From NCBI RefSeq assembly GCF_041886205.1, contig NZ_CP169031.1: a stretch of 64,000 nt of DNA; one strand, 5' to 3'. The DNA is from Escherichia coli (GTDB lineage: Bacteria; Pseudomonadota; Gammaproteobacteria; Enterobacterales; Enterobacteriaceae). Under the pieces are notes generated by a model. It ran no database searches. It was not told the origin of the DNA and worked only from the letters and a program-made list of their open reading frames with translations. Below, one piece after another: positions 2,467 to 59,718 of this stretch; the stretch's first letter is position 1; the number at the start of each line of letters is the position of its first letter. The translations under genes and the position numbers were made by a program.

Positions 2467-3428
2467 AAAAAATAGTTTCCCGTGGACGAGTGCTGGGCAA
2501 GAATAGCTCCGAGTTTGCTCGCATGCTTGAAGGCAGTGAAGGCACCAAAACCTTTACCCTAAAATCTGGCCGCCAGGCTAAATTCTTGCTTACCGTCGTG
2601 CTGAGTGGTGAGATTGAGTCGCGCACGTTCGTTGACCCGGCAGTTAACGGCCGCGATCAGTCTCTGCTCACCCCTGAGTCGGTAAGCGATATTTCCCGCA
2701 CCATTAAATTGCAACAGTTCTTCCCGGCTATCGGTCGTATGGTTGGGGAGCGCATTGAGGTATTGGACGGATCGCGTCGCCGTGCTGCGTGTATCTTCAA
2801 TGAAACGAAATTTGAGATTCTGGTGACGAAAGATGAGATCAGCCTGGCGGATGCCCGCCAGCTGGCCATTGATATCCAGACAGCCCGCGAACACACTCTG
2901 CGCGAGCTGGGTAAACGCTTCGAGGTTATGTACGGTAAGAATATGACCAAAGAAGAGATCGCCCGAGCTGAGAACATCTCAAAGGCTAAAGTGACGCGAG
3001 CTTTCCAGGCTGCCGCGGTGCCGGATGAGATGATTGCTGTCTTCCCCGTAGCCAGCGATCTCGCCCTTCCAGATTACCAGTTACTGCTCCAGATCGCCGA
3101 GGATGCTAACGCTAAAAGCGTGCCGATTGAAGAGCTGGTTGATACGGTGCGCGAACGAATTGCAGAGACTGAGGGCGCGAAAGAGGATAAAGCGAAGATA
3201 CTGGCTATCTTCAAAGCGGAAAGCAAAAGCCTGAAGCCCGCGCCGGTTAAATCTGTGGTGGTTGAGAAGCTGCGAGACTTCTCTGACCGTCGCCAATATG
3301 CCCGAAAGAAGTCCGATCCGAAAAAACGGGTTGTCGCCTACGAGTTCTCCAGACTCCCGTCTGAAGTGCAAACTGAAATTGACGAAGCAATAAAAAAAAT
3401 CATTGGGAAAATGTCTGCTGGGGAATAA
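2463..3428 (+). CDS. parB: Partition centromere-binding protein ParB
   Basis: 321-aa ORF translationally coupled to parA and followed by an AT-rich centromere-like region. Confidence 0.8.
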   Translation: MKKIVSRGRVLGKNSSEFARMLEGSEGTKTFTLKSGRQAKFLLTVVLSGEIESRTFVDPAVNGRDQSLLTPESVSDISRTIKLQQFFPAIGRMVGERIEVLDGSRRRAACIFNETKFEILVTKDEISLADARQLAIDIQTAREHTLRELGKRFEVMYGKNMTKEEIARAENISKAKVTRAFQAAAVPDEMIAVFPVASDLALPDYQLLLQIAEDANAKSVPIEELVDTVRERIAETEGAKEDKAKILAIFKAESKSLKPAPVKSVVVEKLRDFSDRRQYARKKSDPKKRVVAYEFSRLPSEVQTEIDEAIKKIIGKMSAGE

Positions 3429-10365: not shown

Positions 10366-10404
10366 TTATAAAAAAGGCTGCAACCTCTGTTGCAGCCTTT
10401 TTTT
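10366..10404. terminator. Bidirectional rho-independent terminator
   Basis: A-run, then ggctgcaac-ctct-gttgcagcc, then T-run, between the convergent DUF3892-like and ParA-like genes. Confidence 0.6.
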
Positions 10405-12622: not shown

Positions 12623-13423
12623 TTAGCGCGTTGCCGCGACAGGTACCAGCACACCAGCATCAAGCAATCGCTTCATCAGCCACTGCTGACCTTTGCCGGT
12701 TATACGAGTCGTGAAAGAAATCCTGCTTCCATTGCTTGTATCGATCACGGTTTCTTTAAGGGTGAAATACCCACGGGATATGTATTCTTGTTTGGGGACG
12801 TTCCTGCGTTCACCGGTTGCGATCAGAATTCCGTTATCACGCAACCAGGTGAAGAGATAGTTTTGGCCCAGGCCGAGCACTTTGGCATAGTTGCCGATTA
12901 GAACCCCGCTGGCGGTAGCAACGCGTTCGGCGAATTCGACTTTAGGTGCATCCATAAGCATTTTTTGCTCCAGCCGTTGCTTTTGCTCTGCCAGGTCGGC
13001 AGCCAAACGGAGAGCTTCAGGGAGACTCTGCGGAATAGCAGGTTGTAATCTTCCGGCTCGATAGTCGATAAATGTCTGGTTTACCTTCAGCCGAAACGCG
13101 GGAGAAATCCAGCCTGCGTACTCCACTGCGAGCAATTCATGGGCAAAAGTGCCGCCGCCACGGCCTTCGAACGAAACTATGCAATTCTGCATAGTTTCTT
13201 TTTCAAGCTCTTCGATGAGCTGTTTGGCTGACAGCGTTCTTAGCCATTGAGCTGGCGCTTTATGGGCACCGAGTCCACTCGCTTTGTGTAGAGCATTAAG
13301 GTTGTAACGGCCAGCGCGGTCGGTCGTAATTTCAACACCACAAATAACAGGCAGAGTGGTTGAAGGATCGACATTTTGATGAAGGTTTGATATATTCATA
13401 TCCGCATTGAATGTTTGTTGCAT
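12623..13423 (-). CDS. kilA: KilA (KilA-N plus shared KilA-C/ANT domain)
   Basis: 266 aa; the C-terminal ~130 aa are clearly homologous to the Ant C-terminus (IPQSLPEALRLAADLAEQK... versus IPQTLPEALRLAAELAEQK...). Confidence 0.75.
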   Translation of the reverse strand: MQQTFNADMNISNLHQNVDPSTTLPVICGVEITTDRAGRYNLNALHKASGLGAHKAPAQWLRTLSAKQLIEELEKETMQNCIVSFEGRGGGTFAHELLAVEYAGWISPAFRLKVNQTFIDYRAGRLQPAIPQSLPEALRLAADLAEQKQRLEQKMLMDAPKVEFAERVATASGVLIGNYAKVLGLGQNYLFTWLRDNGILIATGERRNVPKQEYISRGYFTLKETVIDTSNGSRISFTTRITGKGQQWLMKRLLDAGVLVPVAATR

Positions 13424-13509: not shown

Positions 13510-13554
13510 TTTTTCTGACCCGATCCAGATCGGGTTGGACGATCTGCTCAGAAA

Positions 13555-13581
13555 CCTGCCAGTTTGCTGGCAGGTTTTTTT
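13555..13581. terminator. Hairpin with T-run between ant and kilA
   Basis: cctgccag-tttg-ctggcagg followed by ttttttt on the plus strand; a second hairpin lies at 13520-13535. Confidence 0.4.
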
Positions 13582-48310: not shown

Positions 48311-51300
48311 ATGAACAAGCTATCTATGGGGGTGTTTCGCTGTTCAAGTGTCAGCGAAATATTAAAATACATTAGGGCAATAACATCTCACCGAGCGCCG
48401 ATTAAATACGGCGTGGAAAAGGTGGAAGGCAAAAGCTATGACCGACTGCGCCGGGAGGCGAATCAGAAGGCGATAGATTTGCTTAATTCGCTGGTGGACG
48501 GCGCGACACTGACAGATGAACAGCGCCAGATCCTGGCTGGGTACACCGGTGAAGGCGGCATTGGCGGGTCCGTCTCCGAATATTACACACCAAAGCCGAT
48601 CGCTGAAGGTGTCTGGGAGATCATGAAGCTCTACGGCGCGGACGTAGGTAACACTCTGGAACCATCGGCGGGAACCGGCGTTTTTAATGAGACAAAGCCG
48701 GTTGGTACGGTGATGACCGCGACTGAGATCAGCAGTGTTTCCGGTCGTATAAACCAGTTGTTACACCCGGAAGACAGCGTACAGATTTCCCCGTTCGAAC
48801 AGCTGGCTGTAAGCACGCCTAACGATTCATTCGACCATGTTGTGGGTAACGTTCCGTTCGGCGGTCGTGATAACACACGCAACATCGATAAGCCTTACGC
48901 AGAAGAAACGGACATGGGTTCTTACTTCATGCTCCGCATGCTGGACAAGATAAAGCCTGGCGGATTCATGTGTGTGATTGTGCCGCCGTCCATTGTTTCA
49001 GGTTCAAACATGAAGCGGTTACGCCTGCGCCTATCACGGAAAGCTGAATTTCTTGGCGCTCACCGCTTGCCTACCGGTACTTTTGACGCAAACGGGACCA
49101 GTACAGTCGTTGATGTGGTGCTGATGCGCAAACATCCGGCAGAGATGGCTGAGAAAATCCCCCTGGTGGATGAAGGCACTCTTGAATCGGCAAATGTGCT
49201 TTGGCCAACGTTTATTTCTGGCAAGTGGTTTGAAAAGGATGGCCGCCGGTTTGTTCATGGCACCCAGGAAAAGGGCTTCCAGGGGCGTATTGAGGTTCGT
49301 GCCGACGGTCAGATTGATAACCAGGCTCTTAAAGCGAAGCTGATTCATCGTTTCGAAAGCCGTATCGACTGGTCTTTGCTCGATATGGCTGAACCGTCAC
49401 CGACCGCAGACGTTGTTGGTGAAGGGGAAATGCGCCTGATTAATGGTGTATGGCAAAAATATGCTGGTGGTCGCTGGATTGAAGCTGATGCCGGGAAGGA
49501 ACTTAAGATCGATGCTGCCAGTTATGGCGCGGATAGCTGGGAGGCTCTTCAGCGTAACCTGACTACAACAGAAGGCCGTCTCGGCATGACATTTACCCAG
49601 ATGGCAAATGTCCGCGATAAGTACACCACATCAATCAGCGACGATATGGTGCAGCTGGTGGACTGGATTAACAGCCAGCCTGAAAAATACCGTGAACGCT
49701 TGTATCGCGGGGCGATGATTGGCCGGATGTTAATTGAATATCAGGACATGAAGGCCGCCGGGCATAGTGCTGAACAAATCGAACAGCAGCGCCTTTCTCT
49801 GGTATCCCGTTTGCAGGCAGAGATTGACCGTTTTGGTAACCCCGGTCGCGGTCCGATAGCGAAATTGTCGGGGAGCGGTGCGCGCGCCTGGTTTGCTTTC
49901 CGTGGTGCGATTAAGCTGGATGGCACTATTTCTGACGAGCTGACAGGAAAGCTGGTTACGCATGATTCCAGCGCCAGTTATGACTACACCAGCTATCAGG
50001 ACACCCTGCGTTATCTCTATAGCGATCTCACCCGCGATCCAATCCAGCTCGATGATTTCCGCCTTGCGTTTACCGGCGAACTGCCAGCCAGTGATGAAGA
50101 GTTGCTTAATTTATTGGCCAGCACCCCTGGTATTGCGGTTTCACCGTATGGCGGGATTGTTCCGTTCGCCCGCGCCACCAGCGGCGACATTAACGAGATA
50201 GTGGCTCCAAAACAGGAATTCCTCGCCACACTCCCCGACGGTCCAGTAAAGAACAACGTCCTTAATCAGCTGGCAGCTATCGAAGAGAAGCGCATCAAGA
50301 CGCCAGCAGAGAATATCCGGTTTAAGCTCAATAGCCGTTGGTTCGACCGTTCCGTCATTCTGGAATTTTTGCAGGAAAACGGCTATCCGGATCTGCGCTA
50401 TGTGCAGTCAGTGCAGCTGGAAGGCGACGAAATGGTTTCTGACACCTATCACGGTGGTGATGGTCTGTTCGTCGGGCACCGATACGGTGTCGTCCAGCGC
50501 AAGGATAAAGAAACAGGTGAGATTCGCTACGAGTGGGACCGTAAATCAGGTGAAAACGCGACCGGGTTCCCGGCACAGCTGGAAAAGTATCTCAATGGTG
50601 CGCGTATCGGTGGCAAAGATAGCGCGACGGCGAACGGCTACCGCGAGCAGATGGCACTGCTTGAGGACCAGTTCAATAAGTGGATCAAGACGCACGATCG
50701 CTACGATGAGCTGGTTGCCAAATACAACGATGTGTTCAATAGCAATATCCCGTATGAACACTCTGGCGATCCGCTTGGGTTGAAGGGATTAAGCGGTAAG
50801 CGCCAGCCATTTGATTACCAGAATAGCGAGGTGCGCCGACTGTCCGAAGATGGGCGCGGCATCCTGGGCTTCGGCACCGGGCTGGGTAAAACCACGACCG
50901 CGCTGGCGCTTGAGGCGTTCAACTATGAGAACGGTCGCTCCACCCGTACTGCGTATGTAGTGCCTAAATCAGTGCTGGAAAACTGGTATTACGAAGCAAA
51001 AGAATTCCTGAGTGAAGAGGCATTCAGTAACTACCTGTTCGTCGGTCTTGATGTGCTGATGGATGGCGATCAGATTCGCCAGGTGCAGGTGCTCGATGAG
51101 AACGGTAAACCTGTTCTTGGTACTGATGGCACTCCAGTTATGCGCGATGCTCTTAAGCTGGCAGATGAAGCCACTATCACGGCGCGGATGAACGCGATCC
51201 CGCACTCAAATTACCGTGCAGTCGTGTTTACCAAAGAACAATACGCCCGCATTCCGCTACGTGATGACACCGTAGATGAGCATGCACAGGATATGCTTTA

Positions 51301-54300
51301 TGACTTCGTTGCCGCCGGACGCGTAGCCAGCGCAATGGACTCCGACTCCCACCGCAAAGAGGCCGCGCGTCGCCGGGTATTGTCGGAGTATTCAGATACC
51401 GGCACCGAAAAAGCAGAGAAGTATCCGTACTTTGAGGATATGGGCTTCGATAGTGTGATCGCTGACGAAGGTCACAACTACCGCAATAGCTATAAAAATG
51501 GTCGCGAAGCGTCACAACTGGCCTATCTGCCCACCAGCGCGGTGGCGCAATCGGCGCGAGATATGGCAATTAAAAACGCGTACCTGATGAAAAAGAATGG
51601 TGGGCGCGGGCCGGTTCTCCTGACTGCAACGCCAGTCGTTAACACCCCGATCGATGCATACAACATGCTTTCTCATGTTCTGCCGAAGGAATACTGGCAG
51701 AACATGGGGATCTACGGTCCTGATGACTTCGTTAAATTCTTCGGCAAGACCAGGCTGGAAACGGTACAGAAAATTAGCGGTGAAGTTGAAGAAAAAATGG
51801 CGCTGGTGGGCTTTGAAAACCTTGATGCGCTGCGCGGTATATTCCATCGCTGGGTAACGCTTAAAACGGCGGAAGACGTTAAGGATACCGTGGAGATCCC
51901 GGAGCTGGACGAACACCAGCAGGATGCACCACTTACTGAAGAACAACTGGCGGCGTATGAAGAATTGCGTCAGCAGGCGGAAGCGGCGGCCAAAGCCAAC
52001 AATGGCGTAACGACCTCGGTCAATGAAGACGGCGTGATTGAGCACGAGAAAGCCCGTCCGATCTTCTCAATAATCAGGGATATGGACCGCGTATGTACTG
52101 ACATGGACCTGTACTATCGCCGGATCACCTATCGTTTCCTGCCGGAGTACGCCGATGCGGTGCAGCAGCTGGCGGACAGTTTGCCTAAACAAGCCACCAG
52201 CGAAGACGACGACAGTGATGATTCAATCACGCAGCAATCGCAATACTCCCTGATAGATAAGGGCGAGTTTATTCAGTTGCAGGTTCCGGAAGCGTTCGAG
52301 CAGGAAGTGAATAAGCGCCTGGCCAGGTTTGGCATTGACGAACAGACCGTAACTCACCCCGTTACGCCCAAATACGCGAAGCTGATTGCCACGCTGAAGG
52401 AGTTTTTCCCGGAAGGTAAGCAAATCATCTTCACCGATGAAAAAACGCAGCACCAGAAGCTCAAGCGCATTATCTGCAATGCTCTTAACCTTGAACCTTC
52501 AAAGGTGGGGATACTGAATGCTCAGACGGTTGCCGAGGCAGGTAAAACCGGTAAGAAACTGAAAGCGGTTAAACCGCCGAAAGAGTTACCGGATGAACCA
52601 ACAGATGCACAGATAGCGAAATACAACGAGCAAATGGCTCTGTATGACGCCTATATCGCGCAGCAAAATGAAATGTCGTTGGGCGGTCTGGAAAAGATTG
52701 CAGCCGACTTCCAGGAGGGCCGGACTCCGATCATCATCTGCAACAAAAAGGCAGAGGTGGGTATCAACCTGCATCGAGGAACGACTGACATCCATCATCT
52801 GACGTTGCCATGGACTCCAGCCAGTATTGCGCAACGAAACGGTCGCGGTGCCCGAGTTGGCTCCAACCGTGCAAGCGTTCGCGTTCACTACTACTGCGGC
52901 AAGGGTTCTTTCGATGAATACCGACTGAAGACGCTGAAGCGTAAAGCAGGCTGGATCTCCGATATCCTCCGTTCAGATAAGTCAGAAATGGAGAACGCCG
53001 ACGCCAACGATATGATCGAAATGCAGATGTATGCCGCTAAGGATGATGGCGAACGTCTGGCAATGATGCAGGTTCAAATGGATAAGGCGAAAGCCGCGCA
53101 ACGCGCTCGCCAGAAAGAACAGGCTACTATCGACCTTCAGAACTACATCAAGGCGCAGCACGCAGCTGGTGAGGATGTGGAGGTGCTTACCGCTGAATTA
53201 GAGCGAAGCAAAGCGGAACTTGAAAAGACCACCGCCGAGGTAGCTAAATTCAAACAGGCGGCAATGGCCAAGGCAGCGGATAACGCAGACTGGAAGGCAC
53301 GCTGGGGGAGTGTCCATCACACAGACCGTATGTTGTTAGCACAGTATCGCGCGTCGTTGAAAAGCGCCATTCAGCGCAAGGCTAATATCTCTCAAGCCAT
53401 CTCCCGCTATGAGAAATTATTGAACCGTACTCAGAAGGCCGCGACGGATATCAAACGCCTGCGCCCGCTGGTGGAGGATGCATTAAATAAAGGCATTCTG
53501 GATGTTGATCCTGACCTGGTTAACCATGCGAGTGAGTTCCTTGTTATCGGCGATCGCTCATGGCGTGTAGGCCAATACTACGATTGTGCCGGTGATATCG
53601 TTCGCATTAAGTCGCTGGACTTCGACAGCCAGCGCGCAGACGTGGAGATCATCTTCACCTTCAAAGGCACCAAATCTGGTAACTGGGATGTGAAGACGCT
53701 GGATAAACAGGTTGATGTAACTCCCGATGAAGATGCTGTTATGCAGAAAATCAGTGGTGGCGTCTCCATCGCCGGGATTAACGACATCGTTTCCTGTGAC
53801 GATTTCTACCGTTTCCAGCAGCGCGGCATGATCAAAATCACTGACTCATACGGCGTTCAGACTACAGAGTCAGGCTATAGCATTGATTTTGTTGGTACCT
53901 ATACGGACCCACTGAAGCATGCGGTTTACCCGGATCGCCGTGACGGCGCGCTGAAGTCGTCAATTGCAAAATGGGTGCTTGGTATGATGTCGGAAGGGAA
54001 TAACCGCCAGATCCGTTCGGCAGAAGCATTCCTGGTTGAACTGTTTGGCTCCAATTATGGCGATGTAATCGCGTCATACGGAGATACGCTATCCCCTGAA
54101 GCAATTCAGGAGAAAATAGCGGATGCGATCGCCAGAATGCCGGAGAAAACAAGCCAGGGGGCTACTCGTAACGGGGATTCTGAACTTGAAGTCACCAATG
54201 CCATTTTCGGTACCAATGAGTTCCGGGCGTCAGATTATGAGATCACCACAGCACAGTTTGGCACCATTGGCATTTACAGCAATAAAGACGAGATCAAGCA

Positions 54301-55078
54301 GGCAATGGACGCAGCAAGCGCGCGCATTGCAGCAGAACGGAAAGTCAATCTGAATCATGCAGTCGCCGCGCTGACTCAATCGTGGGTAACAGCAATCAGG
54401 GAGGCCGCCACCACAGGGAAAATCACACCGGCAATTGCGGATGTCGTAAACGACGGCTCTAAATTTATGGATGCCTATCAAATGGATGCGGTGCAGTTGC
54501 CATCAGCCTATGGGCAACTCAGCTATCGCATGACCTACAACCTGGTATCAATGTTTACCGACCTTGCCATCCTTGGGCTGGTGGACCTTAACGAGGTTAC
54601 GCCGGAATTGCTCAGCATGCGCAAGAATCATGTGGAGATATTGCACAGAATTAACACGGTACTTGCCGGGCGCACCGATGAAGAGAAACAGGCAGACGCT
54701 GATCGGATAAACCTGGCCCTTGGCAACATCACGGAGGAAGAAATTGCCGCCAGAAACGAGAAACAAGAAGAGTTATCATCAATACAGGGTGATGCCACCA
54801 GCATAGCTCAGTCTCTTGGTCTGAATTATCGCGTATCCACCGCCGACCTGAAGATGATGTACGCACCAAAATTCGCCGCTGGCGAGGTATTTGGGCTTCA
54901 GGAAGCCTCCGGCATGAAAGGGGTTCTTTTCCGTGCGAAAGACGCAATCAAGGCGAAATTCGGCGCTCGCTGGTTGCCAGCGAAGGCGAAGAACAGCGAC
55001 TTCCCAGGTAACTGGTGGATTATCGAGACAAAACACAACGTGGCGGACGTTCTGGCCGTCATCCAACAATACGCATAA
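48311..55078 (+). CDS. darB: DarB antirestriction protein (N6-adenine methyltransferase plus helicase)
   Basis: 2255 aa; MTase motif I (EPSAGTGVF) and IV (NVPFGG); helicase Walker A (GTGLGKTT), DEGH box (IADEGHNY) and motif VI (QRNGRGARVG). Confidence 0.85.
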   Translation: MNKLSMGVFRCSSVSEILKYIRAITSHRAPIKYGVEKVEGKSYDRLRREANQKAIDLLNSLVDGATLTDEQRQILAGYTGEGGIGGSVSEYYTPKPIAEGVWEIMKLYGADVGNTLEPSAGTGVFNETKPVGTVMTATEISSVSGRINQLLHPEDSVQISPFEQLAVSTPNDSFDHVVGNVPFGGRDNTRNIDKPYAEETDMGSYFMLRMLDKIKPGGFMCVIVPPSIVSGSNMKRLRLRLSRKAEFLGAHRLPTGTFDANGTSTVVDVVLMRKHPAEMAEKIPLVDEGTLESANVLWPTFISGKWFEKDGRRFVHGTQEKGFQGRIEVRADGQIDNQALKAKLIHRFESRIDWSLLDMAEPSPTADVVGEGEMRLINGVWQKYAGGRWIEADAGKELKIDAASYGADSWEALQRNLTTTEGRLGMTFTQMANVRDKYTTSISDDMVQLVDWINSQPEKYRERLYRGAMIGRMLIEYQDMKAAGHSAEQIEQQRLSLVSRLQAEIDRFGNPGRGPIAKLSGSGARAWFAFRGAIKLDGTISDELTGKLVTHDSSASYDYTSYQDTLRYLYSDLTRDPIQLDDFRLAFTGELPASDEELLNLLASTPGIAVSPYGGIVPFARATSGDINEIVAPKQEFLATLPDGPVKNNVLNQLAAIEEKRIKTPAENIRFKLNSRWFDRSVILEFLQENGYPDLRYVQSVQLEGDEMVSDTYHGGDGLFVGHRYGVVQRKDKETGEIRYEWDRKSGENATGFPAQLEKYLNGARIGGKDSATANGYREQMALLEDQFNKWIKTHDRYDELVAKYNDVFNSNIPYEHSGDPLGLKGLSGKRQPFDYQNSEVRRLSEDGRGILGFGTGLGKTTTALALEAFNYENGRSTRTAYVVPKSVLENWYYEAKEFLSEEAFSNYLFVGLDVLMDGDQIRQVQVLDENGKPVLGTDGTPVMRDALKLADEATITARMNAIPHSNYRAVVFTKEQYARIPLRDDTVDEHAQDMLYDFVAAGRVASAMDSDSHRKEAARRRVLSEYSDTGTEKAEKYPYFEDMGFDSVIADEGHNYRNSYKNGREASQLAYLPTSAVAQSARDMAIKNAYLMKKNGGRGPVLLTATPVVNTPIDAYNMLSHVLPKEYWQNMGIYGPDDFVKFFGKTRLETVQKISGEVEEKMALVGFENLDALRGIFHRWVTLKTAEDVKDTVEIPELDEHQQDAPLTEEQLAAYEELRQQAEAAAKANNGVTTSVNEDGVIEHEKARPIFSIIRDMDRVCTDMDLYYRRITYRFLPEYADAVQQLADSLPKQATSEDDDSDDSITQQSQYSLIDKGEFIQLQVPEAFEQEVNKRLARFGIDEQTVTHPVTPKYAKLIATLKEFFPEGKQIIFTDEKTQHQKLKRIICNALNLEPSKVGILNAQTVAEAGKTGKKLKAVKPPKELPDEPTDAQIAKYNEQMALYDAYIAQQNEMSLGGLEKIAADFQEGRTPIIICNKKAEVGINLHRGTTDIHHLTLPWTPASIAQRNGRGARVGSNRASVRVHYYCGKGSFDEYRLKTLKRKAGWISDILRSDKSEMENADANDMIEMQMYAAKDDGERLAMMQVQMDKAKAAQRARQKEQATIDLQNYIKAQHAAGEDVEVLTAELERSKAELEKTTAEVAKFKQAAMAKAADNADWKARWGSVHHTDRMLLAQYRASLKSAIQRKANISQAISRYEKLLNRTQKAATDIKRLRPLVEDALNKGILDVDPDLVNHASEFLVIGDRSWRVGQYYDCAGDIVRIKSLDFDSQRADVEIIFTFKGTKSGNWDVKTLDKQVDVTPDEDAVMQKISGGVSIAGINDIVSCDDFYRFQQRGMIKITDSYGVQTTESGYSIDFVGTYTDPLKHAVYPDRRDGALKSSIAKWVLGMMSEGNNRQIRSAEAFLVELFGSNYGDVIASYGDTLSPEAIQEKIADAIARMPEKTSQGATRNGDSELEVTNAIFGTNEFRASDYEITTAQFGTIGIYSNKDEIKQAMDAASARIAAERKVNLNHAVAALTQSWVTAIREAATTGKITPAIADVVNDGSKFMDAYQMDAVQLPSAYGQLSYRMTYNLVSMFTDLAILGLVDLNEVTPELLSMRKNHVEILHRINTVLAGRTDEEKQADADRINLALGNITEEEIAARNEKQEELSSIQGDATSIAQSLGLNYRVSTADLKMMYAPKFAAGEVFGLQEASGMKGVLFRAKDAIKAKFGARWLPAKAKNSDFPGNWWIIETKHNVADVLAVIQQYA

Positions 55079-55111: not shown

Positions 55112-55552
55112 ATGGCCACACTATCTGATACAATAAAACCGAATAAAACATATCTTGAGGCGGTACTCCGTACAGCGTTGTTAGGAAAGACAGAAGACGA
55201 ATACGTTGATTTCTTCCTGTCAGGGCTACGCGGGCGATTACTGAAAAATCCCCGCCTGTACCGCAGCTATGGTCCATACTGGCCGGAAATTAAAAAATTA
55301 TTACTGGAGCGCGGTTATGGTAATTTCGGTCGTCTCGTTGACCGTGACGTTCGCAAAATTTACCGTTATGACCGCCCGGCGCTAACACTCATAGCCGCGA
55401 CGCTCTATAGCCAGGAGCGTTTTGATAATGGTCAGATATACTCAGCCTGGCATTTACTGCCAGTGCCTGAAGAAGTTGACGACCAGGACTATGAGTTTGA
55501 GTCTTACGATTTGGAAGTTGAAGCCTTGGCACAGGCTGGAGAGAAAACTTGA
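55112..55552 (+). CDS. ulx: Ulx-like protein
   Basis: 146-aa ORF directly upstream of and overlapping the lxc-like gene. Confidence 0.5.
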   Translation: MATLSDTIKPNKTYLEAVLRTALLGKTEDEYVDFFLSGLRGRLLKNPRLYRSYGPYWPEIKKLLLERGYGNFGRLVDRDVRKIYRYDRPALTLIAATLYSQERFDNGQIYSAWHLLPVPEEVDDQDYEFESYDLEVEALAQAGEKT

Positions 55553-55797
55553 AAAAGCGATACTACACAGTAAAGCATGGGACGCTACGAGCATTACAAG
55601 AGTTTGCTGACAAGCATAACGTTGAGGTGCGCAGGGAAGGGGGAAGTAAAGCTCTGCGCATGTACCGTCCGGACGGGAAATGGCGTACAGTCGTCGATTT
55701 CAAAACAAACAGTGTTCCCCAGGGCGTCCGCGACCGGGCATTCGAAGAATGGGAGCAGATCATCATAGATAATGCATTGCTTCTCAATGCTGATTGA
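55549..55797 (+). CDS. lxc: Lxc/Bof-like C1 corepressor
   Basis: 82-aa ORF following darB-ulx; assigned by position and size. Confidence 0.5.
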   Translation: MKKRYYTVKHGTLRALQEFADKHNVEVRREGGSKALRMYRPDGKWRTVVDFKTNSVPQGVRDRAFEEWEQIIIDNALLLNAD

Positions 55798-55879
55798 GTT
55801 TTGTTGGCCCGGTTTGCACCGGGCGTTTCACAAACAATCAACTGGTTTGTAGTTCCTGCGGCGAGATGAATTATTAATA

Positions 55880-56488
55880 TTATCGTGGTGCCGATGATGC
55901 GATAGCCTGTATGATGTTATCAATATCGTTATCGTTCAGCATGAATATAGGTACACCATTAGAGTTTGCATTTTTTTCAGTGCTCATCAAACAAAGCCCC
56001 TCATACATGCCGCGAGTTTTTTTGAAATTGGCGACTGATGGAGTGGTGTAATTTCCTTTAAAGTGCATTCCGGCTGATTCATAAAAAGGAACCAAATCAG
56101 ACTGGCAAATCAAAGCGACCTCATTTGGAAATGCAAGTATTTCTGCCAGTATATTACTTCCAAGTCCATTACCACGATATTGCTCATATACATATATTTT
56201 ATGACAGTACAACGGAAAATTTCCCGATGGATGTCCGAAGATTAAGGCGTATCCGAACAAGTTTTCTTCATTAGTAAAGCCCATAATGCGCAAATGACCG
56301 GCTCGGTAACACTCTTCAAAAACGTTAATTATGTAGCTTCTCGCTGCTTTCAGCTCCTCTTCTGTCGGGAACATCATCAACCCCATAAGCGATGGAGTAT
56401 AGGCCAGATCCTGAAGAATCCCATTAGCTTCATTTTCGAAAATTAGCGGTAAGTGCGGTACAATTTCATTTGCCGAGGTATTAGACAT
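55880..56488 (-). CDS. GNAT-family N-acetyltransferase
   Basis: 202 aa; motif A (YVYEQYRGNGLGSNILAEIL) and motif B-like (VPFYESAGMHFKG). AT-rich gene with its own AT-rich upstream region. Confidence 0.65.
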   Translation of the reverse strand: MSNTSANEIVPHLPLIFENEANGILQDLAYTPSLMGLMMFPTEEELKAARSYIINVFEECYRAGHLRIMGFTNEENLFGYALIFGHPSGNFPLYCHKIYVYEQYRGNGLGSNILAEILAFPNEVALICQSDLVPFYESAGMHFKGNYTTPSVANFKKTRGMYEGLCLMSTEKNANSNGVPIFMLNDNDIDNIIQAIASSAPR

Positions 56489-56496
56489 AGTATGGT

Positions 56497-56520
56497 GAGT
56501 CCTTTGTTTTCAAAGGACTC
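56497..56520 (-). promoter_or_regulatory. Perfect 10-bp-stem hairpin in the GNAT leader, overlapping the likely Shine-Dalgarno
   Basis: gagtcctttg-tttt-caaaggactc; on the mRNA it ends 8 nt before the ATG and contains the only SD-like aagga. Confidence 0.45.
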
Positions 56521-56686
56521 ATGTTATCAGTGATAATCGTTTGTTGTAATAGTGTTGATAAAATAATTTTCTATTATGTAAGCAAGCTCATTTTTATGAC
56601 GGGTAATGCAAAAAAAATAGAATCAAAAAACTAAAAAATAATAATTCATGGGGTTTTACACCATCAAAAGTCCCCACTATAAATTA

Positions 56687-57328
56687 TTAGAAATAATTAT
56701 GCTTGCCTGTTAATACCCCTTTCGGCACTTTTTTTTGTTCCAGTGTCTGGGTACCCAGAATTATGTTAATAAGTGGACTTAGTAACGATGGTTCCTGGCG
56801 GGCTTCAACTTCTCCAGCCATTGCCCTGATGTAGTCGGCGCTGGCAACGTTGTTGTATTCCGTCGCAAAGCAACATAGTAATGTCAGAACATGCTCTGTC
56901 GTTATTTCGCTCCAGTTGATGTTGAAAAATTCATCGCCTTTTTTATCGTGTTCGGAATCGAAGATGCTTTGGTGGAGGATGTATTTGCCGGATTCCTTGC
57001 GCGGTAACTTGATCGCTTTCTGGCGTTCCAGCTCCTTGTAAATCTGCATTGCTTCAATCAGTACCGGCCTGCCGTTCATGAAGGGATCGCGCAACCTTAC
57101 ACGCTGGCCAACTCGACCAGTAATAAAGCTGTTTTCCTCTTCCACCAGCACGATAAAACCCTTTTCCTCTTTTTCTCGCAATTCGCGCAGCAGCTGGAGT
57201 TCCATGTCGCGGCGGCGTTCAGGGTAGCTGGTCCGCTCAGCCATTATCAGCTCGTTGTTGATCCATGCAGCAGTCATTGACGCCGGTTTGCCGACGCTCA
57301 TCGAAACAACGCATATTTTCTTATCCAT
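56687..57328 (-). CDS. Hypothetical protein
   Basis: Track ORF of 222 aa (to 57355); likely start MDKKICVV at 57328. Preceded on the minus strand by a late-promoter-like element (57469-57477). Confidence 0.45.
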   Translation of the reverse strand: MDKKICVVSMSVGKPASMTAAWINNELIMAERTSYPERRRDMELQLLRELREKEEKGFIVLVEEENSFITGRVGQRVRLRDPFMNGRPVLIEAMQIYKELERQKAIKLPRKESGKYILHQSIFDSEHDKKGDEFFNINWSEITTEHVLTLLCCFATEYNNVASADYIRAMAGEVEARQEPSLLSPLINIILGTQTLEQKKVPKGVLTGKHNYF

Positions 57329-57516
57329 AGCGCCCCTACAAAAAAGAAAAGCCACCAGCGGCGGCTTAGCAATACAACTGAAGGTAGCGCCCGGTACTCA
57401 GACTGTGCCGTCCATGGAATATTTGAAAAGGGATCCATCCGTACCGGGCGTGTGATGATTCTGACTCAAGTCACTTGTCAGTTGTCAATCATTTAAGATT
57501 AAAAATAATATATTTA

Positions 57517-58077
57517 TTAGTGCATAATGTTTGCCATTTCATAGGCGTCAGCCAGCAACTCCATCTCTGACTTGTTCAACAAGGTGAATTCTTTCTTGCC
57601 TCCTACCACGCCATCGGCATGAACAGGGACCAGCCAGGGGTATTTTTCTCTTACTTCAGCCGGTGCTGCATGCTGGTGGTGCCATCTGCAAAGGGGCAAT
57701 TGCTTTTTGTGACAACCCGGCGCGGTACGACCGGAGATATGGTGCAGAGACACCTCTTCAGATATTACTCCATGCATGTAGCAGGCAATGCAGGGGAGAG
57801 TGCCAAGAGCATTGGCGATAGTCTGTTCCTCCTCCGTCGGTGTTCGCCCCTTCAAGCCACGAGATTTTATTTTTACCGCACTTTTCCGCGTTTTGCTGGC
57901 TGGTGGGCGCTCTTTCTGTTTAGCGATACGGCGGTCGATAGAATCCCGCATTTTCTGATATTGCGATTCTCGCCAGGCGGGGTCAGCCAACTTTTCCCGT
58001 TGCCGAGCGATCGCTCGTTCTCTGGCTGCCTTCTGCCACTCGCGGCGCTGTTCAAGTTTTTGTTCGATTGTTTTCAT
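57517..58077 (-). CDS. ref: Ref recombination enhancement function (HNH endonuclease)
   Basis: 186 aa from MKTIEQK; C-terminal HNH-like Cys/His cluster (CIACYMHG...HHISG...CHKKQ...CRWHH); C1 operator-like site upstream. Confidence 0.75.
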   Translation of the reverse strand: MKTIEQKLEQRREWQKAARERAIARQREKLADPAWRESQYQKMRDSIDRRIAKQKERPPASKTRKSAVKIKSRGLKGRTPTEEEQTIANALGTLPCIACYMHGVISEEVSLHHISGRTAPGCHKKQLPLCRWHHQHAAPAEVREKYPWLVPVHADGVVGGKKEFTLLNKSEMELLADAYEMANIMH

Positions 58078-58177
58078 ATGGCAAAAAAAAGGCGGCCTAA
58101 TGGCCGCCAATGATGTCAAGGAGTGAAGTAATGGCAACGTCTTCGTAGTTGACAAAAACTGCGGCCAAATTATAACA

Positions 58178-58192
58178 ATCAATTAGAGCAAT
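58178..58192. promoter_or_regulatory. C1 operator-like site (atcaattagagcaat)
   Basis: Operator core match about 100 bp upstream of ref. Confidence 0.5.
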
Positions 58193-58686: not shown

Positions 58687-59718
58687 CTAATTGCCATCTT
58701 CCAGCAGGCGCACCATTGCCCCTGTTTCACTATCCAGGTTACGGATATAGTTCATGACAATATTTACATTGGTCCAGCCACCAGCTTGCATGATCTCCGG
58801 TATTGAAACTCCAGCGCGGGCCATATCTCGCGCTGCTCCGACACGGGCACTGTGTCCAGACCAGGCCAGGTATCTCTGACCAGAGTCATCCTTAGCGCCG
58901 TAAATCAATCGATGAGTTGCTTCAAAAATCCCTTCCAGGGCGCGAGTTGATAGCTGGCTGGTGGCAGATGGCGCGGCAACACCATTTTTTCTGACCCGGC
59001 AAAACAGGTAGTTATTCGGATCATCAGCTACACCAGAGACAGAAATCCATCGCTCGACCAGTTTAGTTACCCCCAGGCTAAGTGCCTTCTCTACACCTGC
59101 GGTGCTAACCAGCGTTTTCGTTCTGCCAATATGGATTAACATTCTCCCACCGTCAGTACGTGAGATATCTTTAACCCTGATCCTGGCAATTTCTGCTATA
59201 CGTAGCAGGGTATTATAAGCAATCCCAAGAAATGCCAGATTACGTATATCCTGGCAGCGATCGCTATTTTCCATGAGTGAACGAACCTGGTCGAAATCAG
59301 TGCGTTCGAACGCCAATGCCTGTTTTGCACGTTCACCGGCATCAACGTTTTCTTTTCGAATCCGCCGCATGACCAGTGAAACAGCATTGCTGTCACTTGG
59401 TCGTGGCAGCCCGGACCGACGATGAAGCATGTTTAGCTGGCCCAAATGTTGCTGGATAGTTTTTACTGCCAGACCGCGCGCCTGAAGATATAGAAGATAA
59501 TCGCGAACATCTTCAGGTTCTGCGGGAAACCATTTCCGGTTATTCAACTTGCACCATGCCGCCCACGACCGGCAAACGGACAGAAGCATTTTCCAGGTAT
59601 GCTCAGAAAACGCCTGGCGATCCCTGAACATGTCCATCAGGTTCTTGCGAACCTCATCACTCGTTGCATCGACCGGTAATGCAGGCAAATTTTGGTGTAC
59701 GGTCAGTAAATTGGACAT
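58687..59718 (-). CDS. cre: Cre tyrosine recombinase
   Basis: 343 aa starting MSNLLTVHQNLPALPVD, recognised as Cre; loxP lies about 420 bp upstream. Confidence 0.95.
   Translation of the reverse strand: MSNLLTVHQNLPALPVDATSDEVRKNLMDMFRDRQAFSEHTWKMLLSVCRSWAAWCKLNNRKWFPAEPEDVRDYLLYLQARGLAVKTIQQHLGQLNMLHRRSGLPRPSDSNAVSLVMRRIRKENVDAGERAKQALAFERTDFDQVRSLMENSDRCQDIRNLAFLGIAYNTLLRIAEIARIRVKDISRTDGGRMLIHIGRTKTLVSTAGVEKALSLGVTKLVERWISVSGVADDPNNYLFCRVRKNGVAAPSATSQLSTRALEGIFEATHRLIYGAKDDSGQRYLAWSGHSARVGAARDMARAGVSIPEIMQAGGWTNVNIVMNYIRNLDSETGAMVRLLEDGN

Follow-up and report, generated by a model that had tools for sequence, protein, structure and literature searches.

Inhibitory stem-loops which sequester the Shine-Dalgarno (SD) sequence are known from the 5' leaders of bacterial and phage genes, an example being the initiator hairpin of the coat gene of phage MS2. 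This hairpin was reportedly studied by de Smit and van Duin, to whom a relation of about 10-fold per 1.4 kcal/mol beyond about -6 is ascribed. A second line of work concerns the origin of such inverted repeats, namely the template-switch mutation of quasi-palindromes, which reportedly follows a model by Ripley and is said to have been studied in Escherichia coli by the Lovett laboratory.

The hairpin described here belongs to this well-known and ordinary class of translation brake. It lies directly upstream of a gene for a GNAT N-acetyltransferase on a phage-plasmid of E. coli. The account which we tentatively prefer, and to which we give a little less than an even chance, is that the hairpin is a static, cis-acting block which sequesters the SD sequence of RNA initiated upstream or reading through from upstream, while RNA initiated at the gene's own start would escape it. 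In the following sections we set out the observations on which this account is built, the alternatives, and the relation of the locus to known systems.

The Cargo Slot of a P1-Family Phage-Plasmid

The window, that is, the whole stretch of 64,000 nucleotides which was analyzed (contig NZ_CP169031.1 of assembly GCF_041886205.1), is, judged from its sequence, a P1-family phage-plasmid. The region around the hairpin contains the following features:

48311-55078, plus strand: darB
55112-55552, plus strand: ulx
55549-55797, plus strand: lxc
55806-55826, plus strand: lxc terminator hairpin, GGCCCGG-tttgca-CCGGGC, at the left edge of the cargo slot; like the sole element in the empty slot of RCS47
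55880-56488, minus strand: GNAT N-acetyltransferase gene, 202 aa, ATG at 56488-56486; Pfam Acetyltransf_10/1, PHROG 10454
56624-56688, minus strand: non-canonical structure resembling a terminator behind mat, with a bulged, AU-rich hairpin (GGGG at 56675-56672, CCCC at 56653-56650) followed by AUUUUUUAGUUUUUUG; -11.7 kcal/mol
56687-57328, minus strand: mat (maturation control), named by homology to P1 mat and by RefSeq annotations; upstream of the GNAT gene and co-oriented with it
57463-57458, minus strand: mat -10, CAGAAT, near-identical to the annotated P1 feature
57476-57468, minus strand: late-promoter -22 box AAGTGACTT (LPmat), near-identical to the annotated P1 feature
57488-57483, minus strand: Pmat -35, TTGACA, near-identical to the annotated P1 feature
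57526-57509, minus strand: C1 operator Omat, near-identical to the annotated P1 feature
57517-58182, minus strand: ref
58687-59718, minus strand: cre

The flanks of the GNAT segment are 96-99% identical to P1, P7, SJ46 and RCS47, and the control region of mat (57458-57526) is organized as in P1, with Omat, Pmat and LPmat. The 0.9-kb GNAT segment itself was found in none of 50,697 phage records; 22 P1-type plasmids carry it, as do 18 of 5,426 complete E. coli genomes, plasmid-borne each time. It occupies the variable cargo slot between lxc and mat, which in P1 holds the EcoP1I res/mod genes and in SJ46 a RelA/SpoT-family gene, and which in RCS47 is empty, consisting of 39 bp with one terminator hairpin. 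The SJ46 prophage encodes the anti-phage toxin-antitoxin system CapRel-SJ46 (PMC10305079), and we infer that the RelA/SpoT-family gene of the SJ46 slot is CapRel-SJ46. Both this gene and the GNAT gene follow mat and have its orientation. As the slot elsewhere holds the EcoP1I restriction-modification system or CapRel-SJ46, the GNAT gene may be a defense or counter-defense gene. With such systems as alternative occupants, and with a structure (9S30) solved, the expression of this cargo in lysogeny versus lytic growth is of practical interest.

The scan for terminators made no canonical call between mat and the GNAT gene, the bulged hairpin included, which makes read-through from mat into the GNAT leader plausible. 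The bulged hairpin and its U run may nevertheless end most mat transcripts and thus leave little read-through to silence.

The layout of mat itself presents some peculiarities (57340-57445, minus strand; P1 locus L005, 2716-2860). Annotation of a 250-aa Mat in P1 needs a run of five G, where the window has four, so that in the window an upstream 46-aa ORF (57438-57298) and mat (beginning MDKKIC, 57328) are in different frames. In addition, a terminator-like hairpin with a T run (AAGCCGCCGCTGGTGGCTT plus TTCTTTTTTG, 57367-57349, minus strand) is located between the mat promoters and the mat start. Possible explanations are a leader/attenuator arrangement and a sequencing difference in the reference.

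A Perfect Stem Buries the Shine-Dalgarno Sequence

The hairpin and its parts, all given in the sense of the GNAT mRNA, are:

56496-56521, minus strand: hairpin, with 11 of 11 positions complementary, folding as such and identical across all copies found
56521-56511, minus strand: 5' arm, UGAGUCCUUUG
56510-56507, minus strand: loop, AAAA
56506-56496, minus strand: 3' arm, CAAAGGACUCA
56500-56504, minus strand: Shine-Dalgarno sequence AAGGA, wholly within the 3' arm and 11 nt from the AUG; aligns with the SD of all family members

In the letters of the window, the inverted repeat consists of TGAGTCCTTTG (56496-56506) and CAAAGGACTCA (56511-56521), with a 4-nt loop and 11 perfect pairs. The GNAT mRNA leader thus reads UGAGUCCUUUG-AAAA-CAAAGGACUCA, followed by the 7 nt CCAUACU and the AUG (56488-56486). 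A preliminary description of the locus had given a perfect 10-bp stem with a 4-nt loop, ending 8 nt before the start codon; the repeat and the loop are there as described, but the stem is one pair longer, and the distance of 8 nt, correct for the 10-bp version, becomes 7 nt for the full stem of 11 bp.

In isolation, the RNA hairpin has a free energy of -15.5 kcal/mol. Folding of the 5' UTR, which the preliminary description had proposed, retains it in both the MFE and the centroid structure of a 161-nt leader. The 64-kb window has five distinct sites with a perfect stem of 11 bp or more and a loop of 3-8 nt, against a mean of 0.05 per 64 kb in 20 dinucleotide shuffles, so that the hairpin is not a chance feature. 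The further stems of this kind are located at 10370-10403, 13170-13201, 13552-13577 and in the region of 60139; the first of them (AAAAAAGGCTGCAAC/GTTGCAGCCTTTTTT) resembles a bidirectional terminator.

Within the 25 nt that precede the AUG, the AAGGA at 56504-56500 is the sole SD-like run, in agreement with the preliminary description, and its spacer of 11 nt compares with 7-9 nt in those relatives which have the conserved leader. As in other SD-sequestering elements, the SD lies inside the stem and the structure dominates the ensemble at physiological temperature. In any RNA which carries both arms, the probability that the SD is unpaired is about 0.001. The cost of freeing it depends strongly on the 5' end of the RNA: it is 13.9-14.6 kcal/mol if the RNA begins at 56520 or further upstream, 7.2 and 5.8 kcal/mol for 5' ends at 56517 and 56516, and falls to 2.3-3.6 kcal/mol (about 2-4) for 5' ends at 56515-56511.

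Temperature has little influence on this block, the opening cost being 14.9 kcal/mol at 30°C and 13.1 kcal/mol at 42°C, where the hairpin retains -14.1 kcal/mol. An RNA thermometer of the ROSE or fourU kind was therefore rejected, the perfect stem being far too stable and not melting between 30 and 42°C. A search with the covariance models of Rfam 15 gave no match at E<=1 on either strand of 55400-57500. The translational control suggested in the preliminary description is thus borne out insofar as the only SD is buried and needs 13-14 kcal/mol to be opened, whereas signs of a switch are missing, there being no Rfam family, no thermometer behavior and no alternative conserved fold. The hairpin looks like a static block and not like a switch.

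Promoter Candidates and the 5' End of the RNA

Which RNAs carry both arms depends on where transcription starts, and two candidate promoters were considered:

56521-56529, minus strand: candidate extended -10, TGATAACAT, with TG at 56529-56528 and the hexamer at 56526-56521; a family-conserved motif
56638-56667, minus strand: sigma70-like site TTGATG-18-TATTAT from a consensus scan, 9 of 12 matches; lineage-specific and weak

The motif TGnTAAnAT of the first candidate does not vary among 11 GNAT leaders whose genomic surroundings are unrelated (IncFII plasmids, other phage-plasmids, prophages and an ICE), nor in further IMG/VR loci. No other sigma70-like element is positionally conserved across the GNAT family. 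The last T of its hexamer (56521) is at the same time the first base of the 5' arm of the hairpin. As a canonical +1 falls 7 nt downstream of 56521, the predicted start lies at about 56514 (range 56515-56511), inside the 5' arm, and a self-initiated RNA would lack the 5' arm and is predicted to be translatable. The preliminary description had itself named a transcription start downstream of the hairpin as evidence against its reading; with the predicted start lying downstream of the outer edge of the hairpin, this may apply. The extended -10 has four of six hexamer matches and is without a -35, and it may not be the actual promoter of the GNAT gene.

From the second candidate, a 5' UTR of about 143 nt with the whole hairpin would result. 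This site was not found in the other GNAT lineages, and the consensus scan returned 12 promoter-like sites against 5.1 expected, placing the site at chance level for AT-rich DNA. Overlapping the extended -10, directly before the hairpin, is a 13-bp palindrome, TTATCA-C-TGATAA (56525-56537, minus strand), which is specific to the window lineage and has a loose Fur-box flavor by eye. The stretch TTATCACTGATAA upstream of the stem was considered as a Fur box or LexA box and rejected, its resemblance being weak by eye and lineage-specific.

In the account which we prefer, these elements would act together as follows. In an RNA with both arms, the 11-bp stem would lock the only SD and leave 7 free nt before the AUG, so that the 30S subunit could not initiate. 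Such blocked RNA might come from two sources, namely from read-through of mat, which is C1-repressed in the lysogen and driven by Pmat and LPmat in lytic growth, and from the lineage-specific upstream promoter. RNA from the gene's own promoter, the extended -10, would start inside the 5' arm and have a leader of 23-27 nt in which the SD is open. As a result, GNAT synthesis would be kept low and independent of the phage transcription that enters the slot. If the start-site prediction is true, the locus is a compact natural case of translational insulation from read-through.

The GNAT Product

The GNAT protein is identical in all 202 residues to chain A of PDB entry 9S30. Its start codon is backed by an N-terminus conserved in 18 homologs and by the native part of 9S30, which begins at the same Met. 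In the literature searched, no publication was found for the 9S30 protein or for a GNAT in P1-type phages; PADLOC gave no hits and NCBIfam no match above cutoff, and PHROG 10454, to which the protein belongs, is a family of unknown function. The predicted structure (pLDDT 88) is closest, among the matches listed, to SpeG/SSAT, PaiA, AANAT and ElaA, with TM scores of 0.4-0.5, in a fold library dated April 2026 which does not contain 9S30. According to this model, the fold resembles small-molecule GNATs rather than the toxins TacT and AtaT, and no TacT/AtaT-type chain is among the best 60 of 67 PDB profile matches (E<=1) or the 50 Foldseek matches listed.

The preliminary description had regarded the product as possibly toxic. 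This suggestion finds no support, as a PDB entry exists for the identical wild-type sequence; in addition, the fold resembles the small-molecule type, no antitoxin ORF was found beside the GNAT gene, which is alone in its cassette, and ISApl1-mcr-1 cuts the gene in plasmid pHYEC7-mcr1. Membership in a type II toxin-antitoxin module was rejected on the lack of an antitoxin, of likeness to GNAT toxins among the matches listed and of PADLOC hits.

Within the hairpin lineage, the dN/dS of the gene is about 0.2, a value resting on only 13 differences. It indicates a gene under apparent purifying selection, still expressed and useful. The GNAT protein must then be made from at least one kind of RNA, and this is hard to reconcile with a block on every transcript.

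Distribution and Origin of the Stem

The GNAT family is small, with 23 clusters and identities reaching down to about 45%. Its members move without companion genes and are located on IncFII plasmids, other phage-plasmids, prophages, an ICE and genomic islands, accompanied by about 100-130 nt of their upstream DNA (loci L006-L014, positions about 2870-3000; alignment A2), and the SD is conserved therein. This conserved leader is longer than an extended -10 promoter requires and has no recognizable -35. A family-wide conserved leader structure was not detected (RNAalifold -2.4 kcal/mol, no covariation), and in family members outside P1 the SD costs 0.6-4.7 kcal/mol to open. Among these, the homolog on a Serratia phage-plasmid stands behind co-oriented ORFs with its SD unmasked, which argues that insulation is not a general need.

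The hairpin is confined to the lineage of the window, which consists of the window, p15648-1, five IMG/VR contigs, four metagenome contigs and 11 E. coli plasmids, the copies being 97-100% identical. The stem is invariant in all of the more than 20 copies found and, being identical in every copy, allows no covariation test. Between the window and p15648/L021 (dS about 0.06), one substitution is located immediately 3' of the stem and none inside, where about 1.5 changes would be expected in the 26 nt of the hairpin. In pHYEC7-mcr1 (L004, NZ_KX518745.1, 1-2786), the ISApl1-mcr-1 insertion leaves the 5' 291 nt of the GNAT ORF, with the hairpin and leader intact. A 38-aa ORF on the plus strand, read by eye from an ATG at 56521, was treated as spurious because the different length of an A run in p15648 would shift its frame.

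The stem was not found in any other GNAT lineage compared and is thus, by parsimony, derived. Its 3' arm is close to the family consensus (CGAAGGACTCT in Providencia), and the 5' arm and the loop depart from it by a number of substitutions and indel(s), each of which creates complementarity. A search for intermediate leader variants, with a pattern anchored on the -10 motif and the start of the coding sequence, returned 10 hits in viral contigs, none in genome representatives and four in metagenomes, with no intermediates among them; every leader recovered was of one or the other known type. Probably, the stem is the result of a single template-switch "correction" of a quasi-palindrome, which replaced the former 5' arm by the complement of a 3' arm that was ancestral and contained the SD. 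If so, the locus illustrates that one such event suffices to build a strong regulatory structure.

A Different Mask in a Sibling Lineage

GNAT lineages about 85% identical to that of the window occupy the same slot between lxc and mat (Escherichia albertii pESA138_1, pUTME-12-1 and the IMG/VR loci L023-L027), with the same orientation behind mat and without the stem. Their leaders have a stronger SD, GAAGGAG, and carry CUCCUUC about 35 nt upstream of it, with 7 of 7 positions pairing; the MFE structure equals the centroid (z about -2.8), and the chance of a given 7-mer within 60 nt is about 0.003. The anti-SD helix (L001 3087-3150 and L002 3093-3156, both minus strand) encloses a hairpin, GCUGAU-AAC-AUCAGC, which coincides with the conserved -10-like motif, the anti-SD itself being upstream of that motif. 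The cost of opening the SD is about 9 kcal/mol in RNA which includes the upstream sequence, and drops to about 4 in RNA whose 5' end is at the -10 motif or downstream of it. Both lineages therefore mask the SD only in RNA with sequence upstream of the -10; the sibling mask differs in being a 7-bp helix with a 35-nt loop and an inner 6-bp hairpin, in being weaker (about 9 versus about 14 kcal/mol) and in an optimal SD spacing of 7 nt.

Masking of the same SD by a different structure in the same slot argues that low translation has been selected there. This parallel, which was noticed post hoc and comprises two lineages, is the strongest argument for selected SD masking in the slot. A further-reaching proposal, which we regard as doubtful, is that the stem is a promoter-selective translational insulator, leaving the gene's own mRNAs translatable and silencing transcripts of the phage backbone, and that the two GNAT lineages of the slot evolved this trait independently with different structures. 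If this proposal is true, it would suggest a general means by which horizontally acquired cargo genes retain an expression logic of their own within a transcription unit of a phage.

Competing Explanations

According to the view taken in the preliminary description, the hairpin is a constitutive attenuator: all GNAT mRNAs would start upstream, at TTGATG-18-TATTAT or at mat, and the stem would fix translation at a very low level at all times. This fits the occlusion of the SD by about 14 kcal/mol for each upstream 5' end, the promoter-like site with 9 of 12 matches 143 nt upstream of the gene, the masked SD of the sibling lineage, and the spacer of 11 nt instead of 7-9 nt, which points to a tuned-down initiation. 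By the relation ascribed above to de Smit and van Duin, however, a stem of -15.5 kcal/mol would nearly silence the gene, whereas every full-length copy retains an intact ORF and the dN/dS is about 0.2. As the upstream site is lineage-specific and at chance level, and the invariant extended -10 of the family is ignored, we consider this explanation unlikely.

No more probable in our estimate is that the palindrome is neutral, a by-product of template switching without consequence which is hitch-hiking in a young, near-clonal lineage, with the gene's own start inside the 5' arm and little RNA arriving from upstream. The independent masking of the same SD by another pairing in the sibling lineage speaks against this, as does the survival of the stem through the divergence of the window and p15648/L021, even though only about 1.5 changes were expected there. 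What makes neutrality worth considering is the restriction of the invariant stem to one lineage of 97-100% identity, the limitation of the coincident changes, indel included, to the 5' arm and loop next to a 3' arm near the family consensus, the predicted +1 within the 5' arm, and the terminator-like hairpin with a U run after mat.

A function of the palindrome in the DNA, as an operator, appears very improbable. In this case, a dimeric repressor of host or phage would bind the 26 bp over the predicted +1 and shut off GNAT transcription, and a perfect palindrome with a 4-bp center, extending from -7 to about +19 of the predicted start, is indeed in the classic position of an operator. However, the half-site is not a dispersed repeat or shared operator, being found 16 times in the 64-kb window against 17 expected (at <=2 mismatches); the palindrome occurs nowhere outside the GNAT locus in 5,426 E. 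coli genomes; and the cassette has no regulator gene. Two known elements of P1 were likewise rejected: the C1 operator is a 17-bp asymmetric sequence (ATTGCTCTAATAAATTT-like) with eight sites in the window at <=3 mismatches and none within 55880-57500, and the -22 box of the Lpa-dependent late promoter LPmat, taken from annotated P1, is unlike TGAGTCCTTTG. The sibling's SD-masking partner, 35 nt away, also fits RNA pairing better than a protein site.

Least probable of all, and in our view hardly tenable, is an element of RNA ends (a terminator or attenuator, or a REP-like or ompA-like stabilizer of the 3' or 5' ends of mat or GNAT transcripts), which would suit a stable intergenic stem downstream of mat in a window whose other perfect stems of similar size include terminator-like ones such as 10370-10403, but which is opposed by the location 7 nt from the start codon with the SD included, by the lack of an Rfam match, by the lack of a suitably placed promoter-like -10 for the start a few nt upstream of 56521 that a 5' stabilizer needs, and by the sequences after the stem, CCAUACUAUG on the minus strand and TGTTATCAGT on the plus strand, neither of which has a U tract. 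An intrinsic terminator, on which the scan also made no call, was rejected in agreement with the preliminary description.

Comparison With Known Systems

With respect to its presumed origin, the hairpin resembles the products of quasi-palindrome template switching in that coincident substitutions and an indel perfect the repeat, and in that one arm is ancestral and the other its exact complement. It differs in that the ancestral GNAT leader is only weakly palindromic (CUUU/AAGG) and in that the event would be reconstructed from two or three extant states.

With the type II GNAT modules (TacT/TacA, AtaT/AtaR, KacT and ItaT), the locus shares a GNAT on a mobile element whose expression is apparently restrained, whereas the GNAT gene of the window is without an adjacent RHH/DUF1778 antitoxin ORF.

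The closest likeness in mechanism is to the SD-sequestering leaders of the MS2 type, in which, as here, a stem holds the SD right before the AUG and its stability alone predicts inhibition of the 30S subunit, with no ligand or protein involved. In contrast to these, the stem of the window is a perfect one of 11 bp in a single near-clonal lineage, and with its 5' arm over the predicted transcription start it may act on foreign or read-through RNA only.
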